From positions 1,014,606 to 1,078,605 of the forward strand of contig MU004196.1 of assembly GCA_010093605.1 (NCBI GenBank): DNA of 64,000 nt, written 5' to 3'. Positions 1 to 64,000 of the stretch are shown in pieces. The position numbers were made by a program, and so were the translations under genes. Positions within the stretch are counted from its first letter, which is position 1, and the number at the start of each line of letters is the position of its first letter. The notes beneath the pieces are model-generated. The model was not told where the DNA came from, ran no database searches, and saw nothing but the letters and a program-made list of their open reading frames with translations. This DNA comes from Lophium mytilinum (Eukaryota).

Positions 1-3000
1 TATAGCTACTAAAGTAGTATATAAAGCGTAGCTAGAAGAGTATTAGCTACGCCGATTTAGTATATAGCTTTATTAATATAGTCCTCTAGAATACTAAGTC
101 TAGCGTTGCGGGTAATAATATATAGTAAGTTTAAGTTATTATAGATATATATAAAGCTTGCGTTAATATTAATAAGATAAGTATATACTCTATTCTTCTC
201 TCTAAGCCTAGGGTAGATTAATATAGCGGGTATAAATAGGTAGTTCTAGTTAGGCAGCCGTTAACGCCCTTATATAAGCATTAAAACTATTATAATAGAG
301 TATATAGCTACTATTATTACCGCTTTAGCTCTTATAATATAGTATTTCTTAGAGACTAAGACTACTTTATCGCGGGTGTATATAGTAATAGGTACTTTAA
401 GGCTCTAATAGCTTTCTATTTACAGCCTTTAAGTCTTTAAGTTAACTGCTATAGCCTTAAGGTATATAATATTAGAGCTAAGAAGAAGGTTTACCTTTAG
501 ATAGTTAATAATATAGGCTTTAAATTAAAGTACTATAATAGTTGCGCTATTAATAGATAGAATATATAGGCTTATAATAGTAAATTCTATTAATAGGGTA
601 AGCTTATTATCTATACCTTATACTATAACTTTATAGTCCGTTATAATAAGCTTATATAGGTTATTTTACTAGGCTAGAAAGTTCCTTTCTATAAGTATTA
701 TAGTATTACTAGTATCTAGTATAATATCTATAAGCTCTCCTAGTTCTATTAGGGCGGCTTTTATTATAACGTAGTAGTAGCTATAGAAGGTAAGTTCTAA
801 TCTAAGCGTTAGATATATTACGAATAAGGTAATTAGGCAACTACTTATAGCGGGCTAAGTACTTATAATAAGGGTAAGGCTCTAATAAGCGGCTTATTTA
901 GCGGCCGGAGTCTATATTTAAGACGCCTAAGTCTAGTATACCTTTATTTAAGACGCCTTTATATATTAGGCGCGTTAATATACTAGAGCGGGGTAATATA
1001 TACTTTAGAGGTGCTTATATAGAGCGGAGTTTAATAGAAAGCTACTCTTATAGGTATAGTATATCTTCTTAGGCTGCTAGAGGGTAGCTAGTAATATAGT
1101 AGCATTAAGTACTATAATACTACTATTAATAAACCCTACATCTATAATATTATTATCTTTAACGCCTAGTTTACTATAATTCTAATTATTATTATAGTTT
1201 ATATAGCCTATCTAGATAAGCTATTCTTTAATACCTATATAGATATTATACTAGTAGTAGTTATCTTAGTTTTAAAGGGGCGGCTTCTTAAAGTTACTTA
1301 TAGACGTATTATTTATAGACATTCTATACTACTACTTACTATAATAATTATTACTAGCGGACCTATAGATTCTTATACCGCTAGAGGCGTTTAAGCTATT
1401 AGCTATATAGCGCTATTTATTACCGCTTATAATCTATAGTAGCTAATAAGCTAGGGGGAGAGCTAGTCTTAATATTATTATATTAGCGTTTTATTACTAT
1501 AGAGTATAAGTATTAGAGTAGTTATTAGAGTAGTAATAGTTACTACGTCTTCTAAACTAGTTTAAGTAGCTGCCTTAGTACTACTAGGCGGAGCTATATA
1601 AAGGGTTCTAACTCTAGCTCTAATAATATTAGAGGGTAAAGAAAAAAGTATACTAACCTCTAGTAGTTATATAGAATAAAAAGCGGAGAAAGACGTTAGC
1701 TAGATTACTCTAGTTATTATATCTAGCTTCTAGCGTCTATATAAAGTTATAGACAGCAGTAGTAGCTATTAGAGGGGAAATACTATTTCTAAGTAAGGGG
1801 TTAATCTCTTTCTAGATATATGCAAGCCTATTACTGCTATTATTAATATTAGAGTTTAAGTTAGTAGACTTTATATAGCGCAGTATATTATAGATATATA
1901 TTAATACGCTTCTATAAGTATAAGTATTTCTAAGAGTATATATTAATAATATAAGCTTTATAAGAGACTATATTAGTAGCTCTTTAAACTAGCGTATAAG
2001 GGTTTTATACTAGCTATTCTTAAGAGTAGTATAGCTTATTCTAAGCTTCTCTATATTAGTAAGAGTAGAAGTATACTATATAAGAGCGCTACTATATAGG
2101 TACTATAGAAGCTTTACTTTAATAACCTCTTCTATATATAACTAAGCTATATTTTTAACTTACTCTATAAAGATATAGATATTATAGATATAGGTATTAC
2201 CTCTACTATAGATAATATTATCTTAGACTAGTAAGCTACTTATTTTAAGCTTAGGGTAGAAGAACCTAATCTTCTAGATTTAAAAGGTACTAGTAGTTTC
2301 TCTAGCTCTATTTACGCTATCTTATCTAGGGGGCCCTATAGGGCCTTAAGGTCTAGATAGCCCTAGGGGTTCTAGCACGGCTTAACTAGCTTACCTAGCG
2401 GCTATAGCTTACTAGATAAGGTTATTTAGCTATTAGAGCTAAGCAGCGTTAAAGGCTATATCTAGAAGGGGGTTCTAGATTTTATTATAAGAAACGTACT
2501 TAGTAAGATTAGAGCTAGTAGAATAGGGAGAGTTAATAGTAATAGTAAGCTATTATTACTTAAGCTACTATAAGAAGTTTCTAACGTTAGCCTATAGAGT
2601 ATAGGCTAATAATAGCTACTTAGATAGGTAGGCCTAAGCGCTAAGCGGCCTATCTATAATAGGAAACTAGGTAAGAAAGCCGCTTCTAAGAGCTATATTA
2701 AGTAACTAGGGGGTTATTAGATAATAGCGGCCTATATAATAGTAACGGCGGCCTATATAATAAAAATAGCTACTTAAAGAATAAGGGCGGCCTTAAATAT
2801 AATAACGCCCTTAAATATAATAATAAGTTAATAGCTTCTAAGAACTTAATAGCTCTAATAAGGCTATAGAGCTTCTTAATAATAGCGTTAGAGAAGCGGG
2901 TAATAATAAAGAGTTTATATATAATAAAAGGGAGTTAAAGTAAATAACTTAAAGAGAGGGTAGTGTAGAGAGAAGAGAATAGAGAGATAGAAGTAGAAAG

Positions 3001-3688
3001 GCGGAAGTAGAGAGATAGAGAAAGTAAATAATAGAGTATTAATTATAAGGCTTCTATTAACTATAGAATACTTTTTTTAAACTAAGGGTCCCTTCTATAT
3101 ACCGCTACGGGCTATTTCCGCGCTAAGAGGTGCGCAACTAACGCCGCTATTACTATTAATAGTGTTTAGAGCTTCTACTAATAGTTCTAAGATTCTAAGA
3201 AAAGTTTATAAGTAATAGGCAGCTTATAAAGAAACTAGAGGCTAGTTTAAATATAAGAAACTAATAGAGCTTAATAGAGTTAATAACGTTGCATATACTA
3301 GAGGCGTTTACGGACGTCTAAAGGCTACGGAAGTAGTAGAGTTATAAAGTCTAGACCTAATTCTAGCGACTAGATATTAATAACTAGATATTAATATCTA
3401 GATATAGGCGTCTAATAGGCTCTAGAGCTTATAGAGGTCTACGGATCTAGTACTTATAATTTATAAAGCTAGCGAGCTTATATATAAGCTTTACTAGTAG
3501 TAAGTACTAAGCTACTATATAGTATAGATTTGTAAAAGTAGAGGTAAAAGGTATTCTATTACTAGCTAGCAGGCGTAGCCTTAAGGGCTTGCGGGCGTCG
3601 GCGTATAGGACGCCGGCGTCCGGCTAGGCGTGCACGTGAACGTCCTGCACGTGAACGTCTATTACGTGCTGTACGCTAGAGCCTGTCA
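1..3688 (-). mobile_element. RIP-degenerate Ty3/Gypsy LTR retrotransposon (gag-protease region, truncated by the left window edge)
   Basis: Very AT-rich, TpA-saturated and CpA/TpG-depleted, with no ORFs. The minus strand reads ILDTSNTIILIERNFL (DTS at 716-708) and KAYIINYLKVNLLLSSN (~520-470). Reversing C>T/G>A changes gives the Gypsy protease motifs LDTG..LI.R.FL and AHVVD.LKANLLLGSD. The putative 5' LTR start TGACAG at 3688 is tentative. Confidence 0.75.
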
Positions 3689-4555
3689 TGCATAGAACCG
3701 TAATAGAGATATAGGCCTAGAAACTATAAAGTTAAACTCTAGATATATATACTAATTAATCCCCTAAAGTACTATATAAAGGCGTTATTCTTTACTCCGC
3801 CTATTAACTTACTAAGGGTAGAGGCTAATAGTACGTCTTAATTTAGTTCCGAATTGCTTTAGAACCTCCCTCGAGAAGGGCCGGACCTGTAGTGTTAAAC
3901 GCTGGCGTGTAAACCCACCCGACGGCCAAAGCAAGACGGACGCTCATCAAATTTGAGCCAGATCGACGCAGATCGACACGCGGCACAGGGTTCTGCGATC
4001 CCAGCAACTATCCTGAGAGAGATCAATACATGAAACTAGCTACATCCACCTATGAGAGGAGGAGAATGACAACGCAGCGAGATAGCGAAAAGATTTCAGG
4101 TTGCTGCAAAGCCGAGGCGTCCTTGCAGCTGCATTCGCGCTTTGGCATGCCGTGCGGAAGCCCGAGGGCCAAGACTTAGTCTAAAAAAAGCCAACTTTCC
4201 TTCCTCTGGCATCGCACGAGACAGCAAAAGTCAGTGCATGATGGCAATTGTAAGGCCGTTCAAGGCTTTTGCCCGCAGCGATTATGTTTTGTACGATATG
4301 TAAGCCAAGACGAATTGAAAGATAAGACGTCCCCCGCGGAGGTATGGCCGCGAGCTCACGGTCCTCAAAAGAGGCACCCGTCGGTGCCCGTGAGGATGCG
4401 GAGGGGACAATCTTGAGCGCACGGACTGCCCGCATCAGGAGACCTAGCCCAGGAATCGAGCTAGAGACATGCCGTAGAAGGTCGCCGAAGTGCAGACACT
4501 TCACTTGTGGCGTTTTTGCAGATTAGATCCGCAGAGCCGGGATTAAGCTTATGTA

Positions 4556-4751
4556 CCGTATCTTCTGAGATTATAGAGACGGGGCTCTTGGCACGCCTAA
4601 ACCTATCCAAGTTACTACTGGTCTAATATTGGGCTATCAGGCGCCGATAGGCCTATATTTCAGCTCGATCGCGGCGAGCTGATACGCCAGATTAGGTATG
4701 GTTAAGATAGCGGTGCCAAGAGCCCCGTCTCTACGATCTCAGAAGATACGG
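4556..4751. mobile_element. 196-bp MITE, Tc1/mariner-type, with ~39-bp TIRs and TA target-site duplication
   Basis: Left arm CCGTATCTTCTGAGATTATAGAGACGGGGCTCTTGGCAC; the reverse complement of the right arm differs at only 2 positions. TA at 4554-4555 and 4752-4753. Confidence 0.85.
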
Positions 4752-5989
4752 TAGGTTACAGCACCTTCTCACGTCCGGTGGTACAGCGCTAAAATCAAGC
4801 CACAGAATTACCGTATAGGGTAACGATTCCGGACGCCTTTAGGGGGAATAACAGCTGCCTGGCCAATGAATCTTCAAGTAGGCTCATTATTAGCCCAAAA
4901 AAGGAGGTTTACAGGGGTCGACTTAGTTTCCACGCTAGGTCACCGGACGTGGGAAGATGCTGTACCACGTATCGAGTAGTGGCGCTTTTCGGTAACGCGA
5001 TGCGGGGCCGTCCCCGTATTGCGCCTGTCTTCTGTTGAGAAGCGCTTGATTCGGAAGTGCTCTTATCAAGCTTCGAGACACTCTTTTATTACACTCTGCA
5101 CAGCTTCGCAAGTTTGCTGGTTTTGTTTTAACAGAGACCAGACAAGTACACGAAGCGAAGCAGAGGAAACAGTGTCTTACGATTGCAAAGAGACTGAGCA
5201 ATGCGAATGGTAAAAGGGGAGGTCATTGAGAAGCTATTATTGATGAGGCTATTGGCGTACATGTTTCCAGCAAATCCCTTGGTGTGGCGAACTAACACAT
5301 TACCAATTTGGCGTCATAGTTCGGCCGGATCCGTACTATTACCAAGTTAGCGCCATAGGGATTGGTACAAATTCGGCCAAATCTAGACGCTGCAAACACT
5401 GCCATCTGATTGCTCACATCAAGGTCCTTAGGCGGAGTCGATCCAGGTTGTCGGGGTTCGGGTCCGGTAGGCCTCGGGCGCCCATCAAGGCTAGAGGAGA
5501 AGGTTAGTATTTATCGCCTGTGGCGATTGAGTCCTGTAGAGCTGTGGTTTCTGCGTAGTGGCTGCATCGATTCGTCTTGGCGGAGGACTTCGTCAAGAAG
5601 CGGGTTTCGCTCTCTCGCCATCTCCCTTGCTGTAGATAGGTATGGGAGAAGGTTCGTAGCGAGGAATCAGCGTGCTACCGTTTGGAGTCCCTTTGGGGTG
5701 GAGAGTAGCTCGTTGTACGCGGCTGTGCCCGCTCGAATATACATCTGCCCTCTCCCTTCCCTATATAGGGAGCACTGGGTTACCACGTGCTTTCCCGTCT
5801 GTTTCCGGTGGCCACAAGGGCAGGCCGCCGTACAGTGGCCCGGCACCCTCATGCGCTTTAGGTAAGCGTTGAGAACTATGTGCTCTGTGCGTCGGAGGGT
5901 GGCGATTGTGCTTTCGACCTTGGTTAGCCCGTGGTGCCTCTTGTGTAGCTTCTTGTTCCATTGGGTGGCCAGGGCCGGCGTATGGCCCG

Positions 5990-19810: not shown

Positions 19811-20240
19811 AGTCTCTCATAGCCTCCAAACCGTCTGCTGTCGCTAACGGGAGGGCACAATGTCAAGGTTCCCAATCTGTTGTTTCCATCAGTCTCCTTG
19901 GTTTTCTTGGCGAATATCAAACTGCGATAGATCTGGATTCGGAGGGTGGGTGCAATCTAGTGGACACACTTAATCCCCACAAGCGTTTGTACATATAAAG
20001 CCACGATGTACTTTTGGTGACTTGTAATATGGCCTTGATTTGTGTGTGAGGTTGATGTGATGATTAGGGGTGCGCTAGTGGTGCTTCAGATGTGTTTCAG
20101 GCGGTTGCGGTGGCGGAGGGCGACTGTGCTGTTTCCTGTTGAGAAGATAAGGTTCGTCGGGGTTGATTTGGGATTGTTTCGGGGGCGTGGAGTCTATGAC
20201 ATGGCGTATTGGGCCGGTGGGAGAGGGGGGGCTTGGAGGG

Positions 20241-20600
20241 GTGAGATGGATGAAGTGGAGCCAGTCCGTGCGATTTGGGCACCGTTTTGGATTGTAAACG
20301 CCGCGAGCTGCGGATTTTAAATATTTATCAATACATATCAATTGCTGAAGATCCTGAATTGGACCATCGAAGTAGGTTTGATTTGAGAGGGGTGAGATGT
20401 ATGATGGGGGGCCTGTCCGTACGATTTGGACCCGATTTGGGCATACTATTGGTGCAGCCTGCAAACAACAACGATTTACAAGTATCAATTGCCGAGAAGT
20501 CTATATCAGACCCTTGCAGTAGGGATAATTTGGGTGTGGTGAGATGTATAAAGTGGGGCCAGTCCGTACGATTTGGACTCGGTTTCGGCACATCATTGGC
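20241..20600 (+). repeat. Array A of the GTGAGATG...CGATTTGG repeat family (3 units)
   Basis: 38-nt cores start at 20241, 20392 and 20539 (periods 151 and 147). Confidence 0.85.
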
Positions 20601-20943
20601 CTGGGCTGTAAACCAGACTCTCGGAGGAGTCAGATACCCGGGGGAAAGTATCAACGGAAGCCAGTCCATGTCAATTCGACTCTTTTCGGTATGTGATGTC
20701 CATAACGCTGTTAACCAGATTGTTGGAAATGGGCTACAAATTGATAACGAAACTAAGGATAATCGAAGAAGTTGTGTCCACGCGGAGGGCACGCCACGTC
20801 TATACGAATGAGTAGATTTTGGTACAGTGACTTACACTTACATACAAGTACTAATACATCTTCTCCCAAATGCCTCACTTGCCCAAGAACGCCAGTCTAA
20901 TATATACCCTCTCGTTTACCGGCCTTTCATATACTCATTCTCG

Positions 20944-34716: not shown

Positions 34717-34829
34717 GAGGGCCACGATACTCTTCCTTCCGATGCATGTTCCCATGGAATTGAAACGAGGTGTTGGAGAGAGGGCCAAGATACTCTTCCT
34801 TTCGATGCATGTTCCCATGGAACTGAAAC
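34717..34829. repeat. 50-bp direct repeat x2 (period 63)
   Basis: GAGGGCCAmGATACTCTTCCTTyCGATGCATGTTCCCATGGAAyTGAAAC at 34717-34766 and 34780-34829. Confidence 0.85.
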
Positions 34830-52795: not shown

Positions 52796-53017
52796 TACTC
52801 GACATGGGGTCTAGACGTGGAGGCTCCCGGCATCTCTTGAGCCGCAAAAGCAGCCCTGTTCAACAGTCACAGTGAATACATGCAGTGACGTTGCCCCCCT
52901 GCCAAGCCACCGCCCAAGCTTCGAGGGAAGCTCGTGCTCCACCTCCACCACACTTCGCCAGCCAATTCAGTTCGTGGGGTTGGTCACGGTGCGCTGCGGG
53001 AGAACAGAAACATCGCC

Positions 53018-53803
53018 ATGACCTCGAGACTGGTCCTCTGTCTTGGAGACTTGTTCATTCCAGACCGAGCTGCTGTGAGTCCTGTTCGCGCTACACTCCC
53101 CTCGCTCAAATGCTCACCGTGATGCCAGGACATTCCCACAAAGGTACCCGCCAACACTCCTTCCACCTCTACCTGAGGTTGCACGCATCCACAGACGCTT
53201 ATACAACCCCCTAGTTCAAAAAACTCCTCGCGCCCGGCAAAATCGGCCAGATCCTCTGCCTAGGCAACCTCACCGACAAAGACACCTACGAGTTCCTGCG
53301 CGGCATAGCCCCCGACCTGCAAATTGTAAAAGGCGACTTCGACGTCGAAGCGCCCAATCTCGCCCTCTCGAAAGTCGTCACCCACGGCTCGCTGCGCATC
53401 GGCTTCACCCATGGCCACACCATAATCCCCCCGGGCGACGGCGACAGCCTACTGATCGCCGCGCGGCAGATGGACGTCGACATCCTACTATGGGGCGGGA
53501 CCCACAAGTTCGAGGCCTATGAGATGGAGGGCAAGTTCTTTGTGAATCCGGGGAGTGCCACGGGCGCCATGACGACGGGGTGGTGGCCTGAGGAGGAGGA
53601 ACCGACGCCGAGTTTTGTACTGATGGATGTGCGTATTTCGCTGGAGATGGACTGGGAAGTGGGGTTTAGTGCTGACAGTTTGATAGGTCCAAGGCGATGT
53701 CCTCGTGATATACGTGTACCAGCTCAAGAAAGACGACAAGGGCGCGGAGAACGTGGTCGTCGAGAAGCTGTCTTTCCGGAAGAATGGCGGTGGTGTATCA
53801 TAG
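53018..53803 (+). CDS. VPS29: Retromer subunit Vps29 (4 exons including a 15-nt microexon at 53129-53143)
   Basis: LVLCLGDLFIP, ILCLGNL, VKGDFD, GFTHGH, GGTHKF and FFVNPGSATGA. Confidence 0.93.
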
Positions 53804-53959
53804 CGAGCGAAAATAGTTTGATATCCAGTAATCAGAGATTGGTCATGCAAAGATTATGGGAAATTCAGAAATGTGGGGTCTCATATACTGATTTTATTGT
53901 CAAGATACAACCTGTCCACATTGTGTCAATGGACAACTCAAGCCAGACCTTGCGTCTTT

Positions 53960-54570
53960 ACGTCCGTGCGATTTGGACACGAGTTGGGCATATTATTGGC
54001 GCAGCCCGTGAATCACACTATTCAGTGGTGTTGATTGCCGAAGACTCTGTTTTGGACTCTCGAATTGGAGTTGATTTGGGTGTGGTGAGATGTATAAAGT
54101 GGAGCCAGCCCGTGCGATTTGGACTTGATTTTGATATATTATTGGAGCAACTTGTGAATTAGGCTACCTGAAAGCGTTGATTTCCGTAGGTCTTGAATCG
54201 GATCATAGAATTAGGGTTGATTTGGTGTGCTGAGATGTATGAAGTGGAGCCGGTCCGCGCAATTTAGGCATGATTCTGGCATGTTATTGGAGGACGCTCC
54301 TTATCAGGCTCTGAAGTTGGGGTAGATTTGGCGGCGTTGAGATGTATGAAGTAGAGCCAGTCCGTACGATTTGAACTCGATTTGGGCATATTATTAGAGG
54401 ACGCCGCATATCACATCATGGATTTGGGGTATACTTGGGTGTGGTAAGATGTATAAAGTGGAGCCAGTCCGTGCGATTTGCAGTCAATTTAGGCATGTTG
54501 GTGAACGGCCTATATTAGATCTTGAATGTAGGGTATATTTAGCTGTGATAAGATGTACGAAGTGGAGTTG
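53960..54570 (+). repeat. Array B of the GTGAGATG...CGATTTGG repeat family (4 full and 2 partial units)
   Basis: Cores at 54085, 54230, 54337 and 54444; a 3' half-core at 53962 and a 5' half-core at 54548. Confidence 0.9.
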
Positions 54571-55363
54571 TGAAATTTTCAGGTCATAGAATAAGATCCC
54601 CATTCTGAAATAGAAGCGCGGCGCAAAGCAAAGATAAGGCGGGAATGTGTTGTTGAATAGTCTAAAGTGAGTGAACCAATCGTGATTATAATTCAGGCTG
54701 CGATGTGAGCTGCAGCGCTCTCTTTCCTTCGTAATCTTTTTTTGGAGATGATTGTCCATCGTATGAATTGATATAAAGAAAGCCATTTCTATGATCTGAT
54801 ATTCATTTCAACATGGCCTACTATTGAATGTACGTAACTAGCTCTGGAGATAATGGGTCGTTCAACGTGCTACTATAGACTGCGCTGGCTAGTGAATGTA
54901 AGCTGGATGTAAATCAATCGCAACGTGGCACCTGTAGGCAGGGAACTCGTGCATGGAAGTAAGTCGTCTCAGACGACATCGCTATTCAAGAGCCTCGACT
55001 AGAAACACTCACCTCTTATGATTCAACAAGCAATGATGTAAAAGCCAAAGACCGACTCGTCAAGGCACGAACCTCTTGGTGCCTGATGTCCCTAGTTGCA
55101 CTCGGCTGCGTCGTCGAAGCAACCCCGATCGTCAACAAACGCGCCCGTGCTCGATCAACAGTTTATCCCTGCCCGAGCATCTGGGAAATCTCCGAACCAC
55201 AACCTCACTCCTCCAACACCACACACACCCATCATCCGCGTCCATTGTGCCGCCGCACCACGCGTGACTAATAAAACAACTACACTAACATATCTACTCC
55301 AAAACCACCCAATACACCACGCGCGCAGCACCACCTCCTCGTTCTACGCGTCCGCGACCAAGT

Positions 55364-57396
55364 ATGCGCCAGACGCGCTCTGCATTGCGCGCCGAAGTCA
55401 TCCACGTCGACGACAGTAGCTCGGCTGCTGTGCCACTGCCCTTCACGCCTTTCAAGGAGCGTGCGCCGCTAGGAGAGATCGCGGGAAATACTGCTGTTGC
55501 TGAGGCTGAGACGGGGGAGGAGATGGCGCAGAAGAAGGTGAAAGCCGCCAAGGGTGGACGGAAGGGGAAGAAGGGCAAGAAGATGGAAGAGGAGGTCGAG
55601 ACTGAGCAGCAGCAGGCTGTGGTGCTGGAGGATGAGAGACAGGCGGCTGGCAGTCCGGCGAGTGATGGCGCTGCGGAGGAGCTCGCGAAGGAGGCCAATG
55701 GAGGTGAGTTTGAGGCGTATATCTGGGACTGGGGGTGGATGTTGACTGGTGTGTAGATGCTGTTCAAGTGCCTATGCTAGAGGAGCGCCCCGTCTCTCCA
55801 CCGCGCGCGGTACGCATGACGAGGCGGCAATTGGCGAAGGCGGAAGAGGAGTTGTCCAAGTCGCAGCACCAGGCCCCGCCAGTTGAAGAGCCTGTTGAAG
55901 AGAAGGTCGATCAGGAAGCATCAGCTTCTGAATTAGAGACTGTTGAGCCTGAAGCGGAGGTCGTGGAGCCCGAAGCACCTGTTGTGGAGCCTAAGAAAGC
56001 TGCTCCTGTCCAGCAAGAAGTTTCACAACCGGTCCAAGAAGAAGTACTACAGCCGACAGTCGAGGTCGTCCAATCCCCGGCTCCTGAGGTAACAATCACA
56101 CCAGACCTTTCAGAGCTGAAAGTCCTCATGTCGGAGAAGCCATCAGAGGAGGAAGTGTTTAGCGTACGCAGCTCGTCAAGGTCGCCTGGCAAGTCACCAA
56201 TGCGTCTAGAGGATTCAATCGAGGCTCTTGATGCGCTCGACGATGCCATTGAGCAGGTTGCTAAAGCATTCCCCCAAATGGATGCCTTGGAATCGGGCGA
56301 GAAGTCTCCTACGAAGAAGCCAACGACGAGGAGTACTCCCAAGGTGCGAATAGCAACAGTGAAGCCCAAACCAATAGCCACCAAAGCGCCTGTCACAAAT
56401 AGAGTATCACGGAATCCAACGGTACCCAAATCGCTCAAAGAAGGCCCTACCACCGCAACAGCCACCAAGACACGACCACTCTCAGCGGCGAGACCGTCCC
56501 TCGCCCGGTCTGCTAGCGTACGAAATGCCTCGAGAGCCAACGAAACAAAGCCAAAGGCTGCTTCTGGCGAAGTCACGGACTATCTAGCATCGAAGCGCCG
56601 TCCCATCAGCGTCTCCTTTCCTACCCCTCCGCCGCCACCAAAGTCGACAAAGCCACCGACCAAATCGACCTTCCAGCTCCCCGGGGAAGCTGTGGCTGCT
56701 AGGCTCAAGGCCCAACGCGAGGAACGCCAGAAAAGGGAAGAAGAGGAGGCCGCCAAGAAACCTACCTTCAAAGCTCGTCCCGCCCCCGTCCGCAAGGCCC
56801 CAGCACTGGTCAAGCAGACAGCAGCCAGCAAAGCCCGTGAGAGCTTGATGCAAGGCGGCAGCACCGACGAAAAGGAGAACAAGTCCGCCAGCACCCTCCC
56901 ATTGAAACGCACAAGCCCAATCACCATCGCGACAGGCGCAAAGCGCCAGAGCACTCTCATGAGCAATCCCAAGCGCCAGTCTAGCCTGCTCAGCGGCGCC
57001 CATATATCGACAAACCCAGCCGAGAAGCGTGAGCGTCCTGCGTTCAATCTCTCTACCACGAACAATGCCGCAAAGCGCGTCAGCAGCATTGGCGGCCCAA
57101 CGATTCCCCCGCTGAACAAGCCCGCCCTGACGCTAGCGGACATTGCGACGAACCGTGCCAAGGGCCGCGAAGTCTTCAACCGCGACAAGATAGAGAACCA
57201 GGAGCGCGAGCGGGTGAGGCGCGAGAAGGAAGACGCGGCCAAGCGAGCGCGAGCAGAGGCGGCGGAGAGGGGCAGGATCGCATCACGGGAGTGGGCCGAG
57301 AAGCAGAAGATGCGGAAGGCGGGATTGCCTGCGGCGAATGGAGGCGTCAAAACAGCTGCGGCGGGAGTGGGCATGGAGCAAACCGCCAACTCGTGA
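55364..57396 (+). CDS. Basic, low-complexity coiled-coil protein, putative microtubule-associated (TPX2-C-like FKARPAP motif); 2 exons
   Basis: KEN-like RAPLGEIAGN, acidic N-terminal half, and basic C-terminal half with TFQLPGEAVAARLK...TFKARPAP; intron ~55704-55757. Confidence 0.6.
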
Positions 57397-57929
57397 AGGG
57401 ATGGTGTTGAGCTGGGTTGCGGGTATGAATGTCTCTGGGATGAGACACCTGCCTCCCTCGAACGGACCTTTTCCTTCCGTGGTCCTCTTGTTTCCTTTTC
57501 TCTGATACTCTCTTTCTCTCTCTCGAATCGGCCTATGGCCTCTCTGCATCCAATTCGGCGTCCACGGCGCAGATACTCTGAGGGAACAATACCTTGGAAA
57601 AAGCCTCTGGGTTGGGCACGTTGGGTGTCCTTGGCGTCAACGACGCTCACGTTCGTTCTGAAAGAGCGAATGGCTGCTGTTCTACTACTGTTTTGGTTAT
57701 TGATTTGGAGCCTGCGGCTCGAGTATCAGGTGCTTTAGCTTGAGCCTCAGAGCTGTGGAAAACACTTGAGCGAGGTGTTTGTTATGGGCAGTTCCTTGAT
57801 GAAGTACTATAGGTAGCGATTACAGTGACATTCAACTACATTGAGAGTGAGTTTGGTGGTGGTTGAGTGAGTCAAGAACTAGGAACGGTAATTTCCGATT
57901 CGCTGAACGAATGCGCCCATGACTGTCTA

Positions 57930-58115
57930 CTTCAATAACTTGGCCAAATCGACTTCAAATTGCAGAGTGGCTCCCGTTACCACATCTCACGAACTCAACA
58001 TCAAGCCTCTTTCTGTCGCCTAATCTGAAGTGAACTCCAATAACACGCCCAAACTGACTTCAAATCACACGGACTAGCTCCCGTTAGTACATCTCACCAC
58101 CTCAAAATTAACTCT
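57930..58115 (-). repeat. Array C of the GTGAGATG...GATTTG repeat family (2 units, reverse strand)
   Basis: Minus-strand cores start at 58097 (GTGAGATGTACTAACGGGAGCTAGTCCGTGTGATTTGA) and 57990; period 107. Confidence 0.8.
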
Positions 58116-58422
58116 ATTCCTGTAGTCTGATTCCTAGTGTGTAAGGGAGGGCAATGCACCAACACGGGCGAGAGCGAGATCTCAAATACTAGGATATAGA
58201 ATTATCGTCTAGTCATCGCTATAGAAAATTCCCAGCATCTATAAATGCCATGTTAAGTACTCCTCCAATGCCGTCTTCCCGCACAATGTGTATCCTGTGT
58301 ACTCCTTTTCCCAACCAAATCCAGCAAATGCAATGCATGCGATTCCGAGCCACAATCTAGAAGAGGTAGAAAGAAGCTAAAGTCGTCGGATAAGAAATAA
58401 GTCGGATAGATCAGCCGTGTCG

Positions 58423-63344: not shown

Positions 63345-64000
63345 CAATTCACAGGTTCGTAAACGTTACATCCTATCGTAGATTAAGAAAATAGGCCAGG
63401 GGACTCCAGACAGCGCTACCACACATCCAAAGCGATTCCTATCATCAAGTCAATATACTGTACACATACCTCTGAAGCTCTGAATTGAACAAGCCGAGTT
63501 CTCGAACTGTAGCCCTCCATGAGGAGTTGAAGCGCTTCGATAGCGTAATAATACCCCTTCAATGCCTATCAGATTCACGTAGTCCAAAACGTTACATCCT
63601 ATTTCAATCTCGTATACCAAGCTAGAGGACTTCAGACGGCGCTATCACACCGGCAAAGCATCTGCGTGCAGCACCTGATTCTATCGGGCTGGTAACATGA
63701 ATAGATTTGAAGGCCTAGAATCTCATTGTTGAGTTTTTGAGATTATCGCCCTTCCTGAGGAGTTGAAGCGCTTCAATAGCGTAAGAGTACCCTTCCAATG
63801 CCTATCTGATTCATGTAGTCTGAAACGTTACATCCTGTTCTGAATTGGTGTACTAAGCCAAAGGACTTCAGACGGCGCTATTACACCGGCAAAACGACTG
63901 CGTGCAGCACCTGATTCTATGATGCTAGAAATATGAATAGATTAAAGGCTTGAAATCTCACTGCTGATTTCTTTACATTATAGCCGTTGATAAGTAGTTG
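63345..64000. repeat. ~230-bp tandem repeat, about 3 units, running off the right edge
   Basis: AAACGTTACATCCT at 63361, 63587 and 63823 (periods 226 and 236); GAGGAGTTGAAGCGCTTC at 63521 and 63757. Confidence 0.9.

Follow-up and report, generated by a model that had tools for sequence, protein, structure and literature searches.

A dispersed family of short, diverged tandem repeats with a better-conserved 38-nt core, located behind genes in a Dothideomycete genome

Results

Gene context and detection of three repeat arrays

The DNA analysed here (the window, a stretch of 64 kb) belongs to a Dothideomycete whose mevalonate-diphosphate decarboxylase ORF is 93% identical to that of Mytilinidion resinicola and 84% identical to that of Lepidopterella palustris. 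The array under study (array 2) starts 158 bp past the stop codon (53802-53804) of the VPS29 gene. A scan of the window with an nhmmer profile built from seven repeat units, with a reporting limit of E<=10, identified 12 complete or partial units, all of them at one of three loci, namely 20207-20696 (+), 53962-54567 (+) and 57925-58132 (-), and outside these loci no further profile match was obtained at that limit in the 64 kb. Eleven of the 12 matches had E values between 1e-29 and 4e-6, the remaining one, a tail unit at 20647-20696, being weak (E 0.021). A prior reading made from the letters alone (the sequence-only reading) had placed related arrays at 20 kb and, inverted, at 57.9-58.1 kb, and the profile recovered both. 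The features referred to below are as follows.

20150-20727, + strand: array 1, from the repeat finder and the profile, with a degenerate left edge judged by eye
20207-20356, 20357-20503 and 20504-20650, + strand: firm long units of array 1
20241-20278, 20392-20429 and 20539-20576, + strand: cores of array 1
About 20150-20206 and 20647-20727: degenerate edges of array 1
53019-53804, + strand: VPS29 gene (Metallophos_2 domain), directly upstream of array 2 and co-oriented with it
53941-54595, + strand: array 2
53962-54050, + strand: part-unit of array 2, followed by the long unit 54051-54195
54196-54301, 54302-54408 and 54409-54512, + strand: short units of array 2
54513-54567, + strand: half unit at the distal end of array 2, with a unit-start fragment at 54579-54591
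54085-54122, 54230-54267, 54337-54374 and 54444-54481, + strand: cores of array 2
57925-58133, - strand: array 3, two short units of ~107 nt, inverted, with cores at 58097-58060 and 57990-57955

The conserved element of approximately 38 nt that had been proposed at 54085, 54230, 54337 and 54444, together with half-cores at 53962 and 54548, was found at each of these positions. With up to three mismatches allowed, the 38-nt consensus matched at five positions of the window (20241, 20539, 54085, 54337 and 54444), as compared to none in 100 dinucleotide-preserving shuffles. The cores at 54230 and 20392 carry five and four mismatches, respectively, and represent diverged but genuine copies, while those of the inverted array carry seven (58097-58060) and ten (57990-57955). 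The proposed core spacings of array 2 (146, 145, 107, 107 and ~104 bp) were likewise reproduced, the 20-kb array showing 151 and 147 bp. At 54202-54567, Tandem Repeats Finder detected repeats with periods of 107 and 104 bp (74-77% matches), and a direct-repeat search returned an 88-nt segment present seven times, with spacings of 151, 147, 145, 107 and 107 bp and an inverted partner at ~58035-58131. The arrays are therefore far beyond chance and consist of head-to-tail units at three loci.

All three arrays are situated downstream of gene 3' ends, in agreement with what had been claimed for them. Array 1 lies between an asparagine synthase ORF (+, stop 19669) and a cytochrome c heme lyase gene (-), which form a convergent pair; array 2 lies between VPS29 (+) and the next + strand gene, a tandem pair; and array 3 lies between that same + strand gene (RNA contig 55039-57775) and a NACHT/NPHP3_N gene on the - strand (RNA contig running upward from 58260), again a convergent pair. 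Two of the three intergenic regions are thus convergent and one is tandem, and no array occupies a divergent promoter region. Each array is oriented like one of the genes next to it, the 3' end of that gene being turned towards the array. With n=3 this is only suggestive, the chance of such agreement being 1 in 8; moreover, the sense partner is ambiguous for two of the three arrays, since these are located between convergent genes. As a separate observation, the + strand gene at 55039-57775 has a single 53-nt intron (55702-55754), a spliced RNA contig of 2,684 nt and a 560-aa main ORF that carries no Pfam domain.

Architecture of the unit and of the array ends

The basic unit measures ~107 nt, and a long variant of 145-151 nt owes its length to an extra segment of ~40 nt. 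Array 1 contributes three of the five long units and array 2 the other two, which are its first; the extra segments can be aligned between the two arrays. Arrays comprise two to six units, arranged head to tail. The sequence-only reading had described a layout of core plus spacer, and this description did not survive alignment, as the supposed spacers belong to the unit itself, being portions of it that have diverged, and homology extends over the whole unit length. The same finding bears on the likeness to CRISPR, which consists in a conserved segment of ~38 nt that alternates regularly with more variable DNA. The resemblance had been called superficial, and so it proved: the DNA is fungal, the 'spacers' align with one another as homologues, whole units are only 52-74% alike, and none of the nine flanking ORFs that were scanned belongs to a Cas family, these ORFs yielding only ordinary housekeeping or NACHT families or no match. 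A CRISPR array was rejected on these grounds.

The array edges are degenerate rather than sharp, and the phase within the unit at which an array starts and ends differs from one array to another. BLAST of the flanks of the three loci detected no shared sequence and no homology outside the arrays, and a search with seed 8 and a minimum length of 12 found no inverted repeats flanking any of the three arrays, which bears out the claim that terminal inverted repeats and target-site duplications are absent. Arrays 1 and 2 align best over a stretch of 185 bp, at 76%, that crosses from one unit into the next, and this points to dispersal as multi-unit blocks.

These observations are relevant to the proposal that a non-autonomous transposon, either Helitron-like or MITE-like, supplied the arrays, whether from its interior or as head-to-tail pieces. 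Canonical Helitrons begin with 5'-TC and terminate in 3'-CTRR, preceded by a subterminal hairpin. In the present family the junction between units would fall inside the core (...GCCAG|TCCG..., with CTAG|TC in one unit) and would have been generated by rolling-circle read-through or by tandem insertion; the unit at 58097-58060 indeed reads CTAG followed by TC, at the point of the unit where array 2 begins (GTCCG at 53962). It is also pertinent that Helitrons are described in PMC12692304 as frequent carriers of short euchromatic arrays. Against this, just one of nine cores ends in CTAG, six ending in CCAG and the other two in CCTG and CCGG, no hairpin precedes the putative Helitron end (the sole predicted stem has 3 bp and crosses the junction), the right end of array 2 falls 4 nt short of the putative junction, and array 3 has both its ends at another phase of the unit. 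The three loci furthermore share no flanks, terminal inverted repeats or target-site duplications. A Helitron-derived array was consequently rejected on the single CTAG|TC among nine cores, the missing hairpin and the differing phases of the array ends, and a MITE on the lack of a flanking inverted-repeat pair and of shared termini in the BLAST of the flanks. The family does resemble MITEs and Helitron-borne repeats in being non-autonomous, non-coding and dispersed near genes, where such elements are often co-transcribed in UTRs, yet it differs from them in having neither terminal inverted repeats nor target-site duplications, common termini or shared flanks. We regard a transposon origin of this kind as distinctly unlikely. 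Of the earlier suggestion of a mobile element carrying a minisatellite, the part that is favoured below is a selfish repeat of minisatellite type; no transposon hallmarks were found.

Sequence conservation, base composition and helical periodicity

Pairwise identity between units ranges from 52 to 74%, and units of one array resemble each other (68-74%) no more closely than units of array 1 resemble those of array 2 (61-74%); judged by such values, the units appear to be old. The core (alignment columns 36-73) has a mean pairwise identity of 81% as compared to 57.5% for the rest of the unit, and none of 5000 column permutations gave a best 38-column window as extreme as that observed. The superior conservation of the core over the spacer, on which the idea of a functional element had been made to depend, was thereby upheld.

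When units were compared to their consensus, 106 transitions and 103 transversions were counted, and RIP indices within the arrays were normal. RIP mutation of the arrays was ruled out by these two results, the second of which confirms that the arrays bear no RIP signature, as had been stated. The sense strand is poor in C in all three arrays (13-18% C, with a GC skew of +0.28 to +0.41).

A further possibility is a role at the DNA level, in which arrays behind genes, by binding protein or through unusual mechanical properties, would serve as roadblock terminators, boundaries or insulators. The three GATTTGG-type motifs of each unit would in this case recruit a DNA-binding protein or bend the DNA. 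The motifs lie 43 and 11 bp apart within the unit and are thus roughly in helical phase; GATTTGG itself has 24 copies when the two strands of the window are counted together, of which 12 are located in the arrays in sense orientation; and among periods of 5 to 20 bp, A/T dinucleotides in arrays 2 and 3 recur most strongly at 10.5-10.7 bp, five of nine single units surpassing 95% of their own shuffles. The position of the arrays between transcription units would suit such a role, and an analogue exists in Caenorhabditis elegans, where Helitron minisatellites act as insulators according to a preprint (bioRxiv 10.64898/2026.08.08.743475). The periodicity is, however, weak, being absent in four of nine units and in array 1, and the 10.7-bp period is confounded because it is the tenth harmonic of the 107-bp tandem repeat; in addition, no known binding motif was identified. 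A further argument, namely that the long unit approximates the length of nucleosomal DNA, lost weight when the flanks of other genomic copies were inspected, as all five readable ones were of the short type of ~107 nt and not 146 nt. A DNA-level function accordingly strikes us as rather improbable.

Coding potential and structured RNA

A coding repeat was excluded for arrays 2 and 3 by the presence of 5-13 stops in every frame, and two stop-to-stop ORFs over array 1 gave no Pfam match. Unit lengths are mostly not multiples of 3, as had been noted for the spacings.

Processed small-RNA cassettes were among the functions originally put forward for the family, and under this explanation the arrays would be structured RNAs (snoRNAs, milRNA precursors or similar) that are processed from the 3'UTR. 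It may be said in favour of such cassettes that array 2 is transcribed (see below) and that the repeated unit contains a conserved core. The window, however, produced no Rfam hits at gathering thresholds, the two hits at 53800-54700 being at chance level (E 3.1 with 15.5 bits and E 7.8 with 12.3 bits, where the gathering scores are 51 and 40). Fold z-scores of seven units on both strands lay between -0.98 and +0.98, none being better than shuffles, and the alifold consensus attained merely -1.62 kcal/mol with 13 weak pairs, 2 of the 13 showing a double change. The fold z-scores, the weak alifold consensus and the absence of an Rfam match led us to reject a structured RNA; having neither a stable nor a covarying fold, the cassette interpretation is largely refuted and we consider it very improbable. 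A tRNA or SINE origin was also discarded, as ARAGORN predicted no genes in the window, Rfam supplied no gathering hits there, and a head related to tRNA, 5S or 7SL was not encountered.

Transcription of array 2 and copies elsewhere

Contigs of public sequencing runs were aligned to 52800-58400; the runs are designated X1 (possibly the source DNA), X3, X4 and X5. Among the X3 contigs are some that skip three GT..AG introns, and X3 therefore holds spliced RNA. In one X3 contig (record 10, 753 nt), the intron 53629-53686 is spliced out, so that 96 nt from the preceding VPS29 exon are followed directly by 53687-54343; these last 657 nt align with no mismatches and no gaps. From this contig it follows that the VPS29 3'UTR is at least 539 nt long and includes ~3.5 repeat units, in sense orientation and unspliced. 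Array 2 is thus shown to be transcribed within the VPS29 3'UTR; we infer that this transcription is passive. The depth of contig 54555-55037 is 5.4 as compared to 582 for the VPS29 contig, which hints that the VPS29 transcript ends at or in the distal array, albeit contig depth is a poor guide that cannot rank gene parts. X1 and X3, which both cover the array 2 locus, have no listed difference there.

In X1, 178 contig pieces aligned to 52800-58400, with 126 of them below 95% identity. Seventeen X1 contigs have a T at core position 54109, where the window has a C, and there are therefore at least 17 further copies of the family, which probably amounts to several dozen units genome-wide. The characterization of the family as dispersed and non-coding is in keeping with the three loci of the window, the at least 17 further X1 contigs and the stops in all frames of arrays 2 and 3. 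In X3, 13 contigs carry other core copies at position 54109, and other family members are probably transcribed too, DNA admixture in X3 being possible.

X4 represents a related species, its coding parts being about 95-98% identical to the window (about 95-97% for VPS29). X4 and X5 contributed few contig pieces on the arrays. Two X4 contig ends listed at array 2 match the window only at 54442-54480, which is the core; their flanks diverge from the window, and to the eye are still unit-like. In X4, the VPS29 RNA contig departs from the window 6 nt beyond the stop codon, with only 35 further letters available (window 53805-53845), and the start of the 3'UTR therefore differs structurally between the species.

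The transcript also separates the family from the introner-like elements of Dothideomycetes, which it resembles in that both are non-coding sequences of ~100 nt that have multiplied through unrelated genes and are present in transcripts; GTGAGA opens the core, CAG or TAG closes it, and TACTAAC is present in one unit. Introner-like elements are spliceosomal introns that lie within genes and are removed from mRNA, as stated in PMC4457414. They are single and spliced, whereas the units described here are tandem, follow a stop codon and are unspliced in the mRNA contig, and the GT...AG span in the core is merely 24 nt. An introner-like element was rejected for the reason that the VPS29 RNA contig retains 657 nt, including ~3.5 units, with no gaps, and that the arrays lie past stop codons.

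Placement of the array in a 3'UTR lends appeal to another explanation, according to which the core is a selected cis-element at the RNA level that was spread by the repeat into many 3'UTRs, where it would bind an RNA-binding or 3'-end-processing factor and so influence how the host mRNAs are polyadenylated, how stable they are or where they are localised. UGUA is a fungal 3'-processing motif, and every unit possesses a UGUA-containing AGAUGUAU(A/G)AAG stretch on the G/U-rich sense strand; the candidate 3'-processing stretch of the unit reads AGATGTAT(A/G)AAG, and each unit has an invariant AGATG followed by TAT(A/G)AAG. The explanation further draws on the sense orientation of array 2 in the VPS29 3'UTR, on the better preservation of the core, which is the sole part to match the two listed X4 contig ends, on the 13 X3 contigs with other core copies, and on the C-poor sense strand and the co-orientation with an adjacent gene that are seen in all three arrays. 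Weighing against it are the absence of a conserved RNA structure (alifold and fold z-scores), the conjectural nature of the RNA-binding motif, the ambiguous sense partner of the two arrays between convergent genes, and a VPS29 3'UTR that is not obviously conserved between species, given the divergence of the X4 contig 6 nt past the stop. We consider an RNA-level element of this sort unlikely, though worth keeping in mind.

Searches for relatives

Metagenome contigs contained no match to the strict core pattern. Four metagenome loci (L001-L004) that were found with a 20-mer are attributable to chance, since the unit profile fits only the 20-mer region of each (21-31 nt). No description of the core 15-mers or of such a fungal family was found in the literature, the 15-mers having been sought in open-licence papers only. 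Within the searches made, this particular repeat family appears to be undescribed; the kind of element to which we assign it below, a short-array satellite or minisatellite, is already well known.

Discussion

The explanation that we favour, with restrained confidence, is that the family represents an old, lineage-restricted short-array satellite or minisatellite of euchromatin, which is tolerated behind genes and transcribed passively. This reading is adopted because the units are tandem, head to tail, non-coding and heterogeneous, and because the arrays extend over a few hundred bp, lie near genes and have no defined termini; the family moreover occupies several dispersed loci, three in the window and at least 17 further contigs. 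Euchromatic short arrays with heterogeneous units, and dispersed satellite 'seed' arrays that are often spread by transposons or rolling-circle products, are described in PMC12692304, as are units of ~100-150 bp, arrays of a few hundred bp, a location in gene-rich DNA and restriction to particular lineages, all of which the present family shares. Such satellites are described mostly in animals and plants, and no report was found for this fungal lineage. The family here differs from them in having one 38-nt segment whose conservation far exceeds that of the remaining unit, and in the location of its arrays in 3'UTR or 3'-intergenic positions.

Under the satellite or minisatellite reading, arrays would grow and shrink by slippage or unequal exchange, and would be dispersed as multi-unit blocks by some vehicle, be it a mobile element on which they hitch-hiked or circular DNA that re-inserted; no dispersal vehicle was found. 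The arrays may persist mainly behind genes as insertions there would be least harmful. RIP has thresholds of both length and identity, as established in Neurospora, and the units may have escaped it by being short and too diverged (<80% alike). On this view, what propagation or exchange requires would be the 38-nt core, perhaps as a site to which a protein binds, and the core would not serve the host.

What speaks against the favoured reading is the core itself, as neither its better conservation nor the fact that the X4 contig ends match the core only is predicted by simple neutral decay. The orientation that all three arrays have in common with an adjacent upstream gene (1 in 8 by chance) and the failure to find a dispersal vehicle tell against it as well. 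A better-kept core can arise in a sequence of no function to the host, if the machinery of propagation or exchange needs it, but a cis-element under selection would present the same picture. The more far-reaching version of the latter, namely that a selected core was spread by a selfish repeat into the 3'UTRs or 3'-intergenic regions of dozens of genes in the Dothideomycete lineage, appears to us slightly less credible still than the unlikely RNA-level element discussed above. If it were true, the family would constitute a regulon carried by a repeat and directed at the formation of mRNA 3' ends, at mRNA stability or at the termination of transcription, in which array length would set a tunable dose of binding sites, and a functional core would furnish a fungal example of a tandem repeat that distributes a regulatory site to many 3'UTRs.

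Taken simply as another lineage-specific repeat, the family can help to repeat-mask and annotate Mytilinidiales-like genomes, may provide a VNTR marker, and shows that short, diverged tandem units can persist in an otherwise RIP-mutating genome.

Other features of the window

The first 4500 nucleotides of the window (1-4500) are AT-rich (GC 35%) and carry a strong RIP signature, with a TpA/ApT of 1.86 and a (CpA+TpG)/(ApC+GpT) of 0.31, as compared to 53% GC and normal RIP indices in the remainder of the window; this block is probably a RIP-degraded transposon remnant bordering the gene-rich region. At its border lie two adjacent structures of ~200 bp, 4554-4753 and 4757-4964, which both begin with TAC...CTTCT and whose inverted arms measure 46 nt (91% complementary) in the first and 43 nt (74%) in the second; by their sequence they look like MITE-like or foldback elements.

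Two 50-nt direct repeats at 34717-34829 are 94% identical and start 63 bp apart. A 236-bp tandem repeat occupies 63361-63985, with at least 2.1 copies at 81% matches and a third, partial copy, and reaches the window end. Kinship of the 107-nt family with this repeat (63.4-64.0 kb) was rejected, as local alignment scores equalled those of shuffles. Finally, VPS29 contains a micro-exon of 15 nt (53129-53143), which reads DIPTK and is placed between two short introns, and contigs of X3, X4 and X5 join 53075 to 53213 with the letters of the micro-exon between them.
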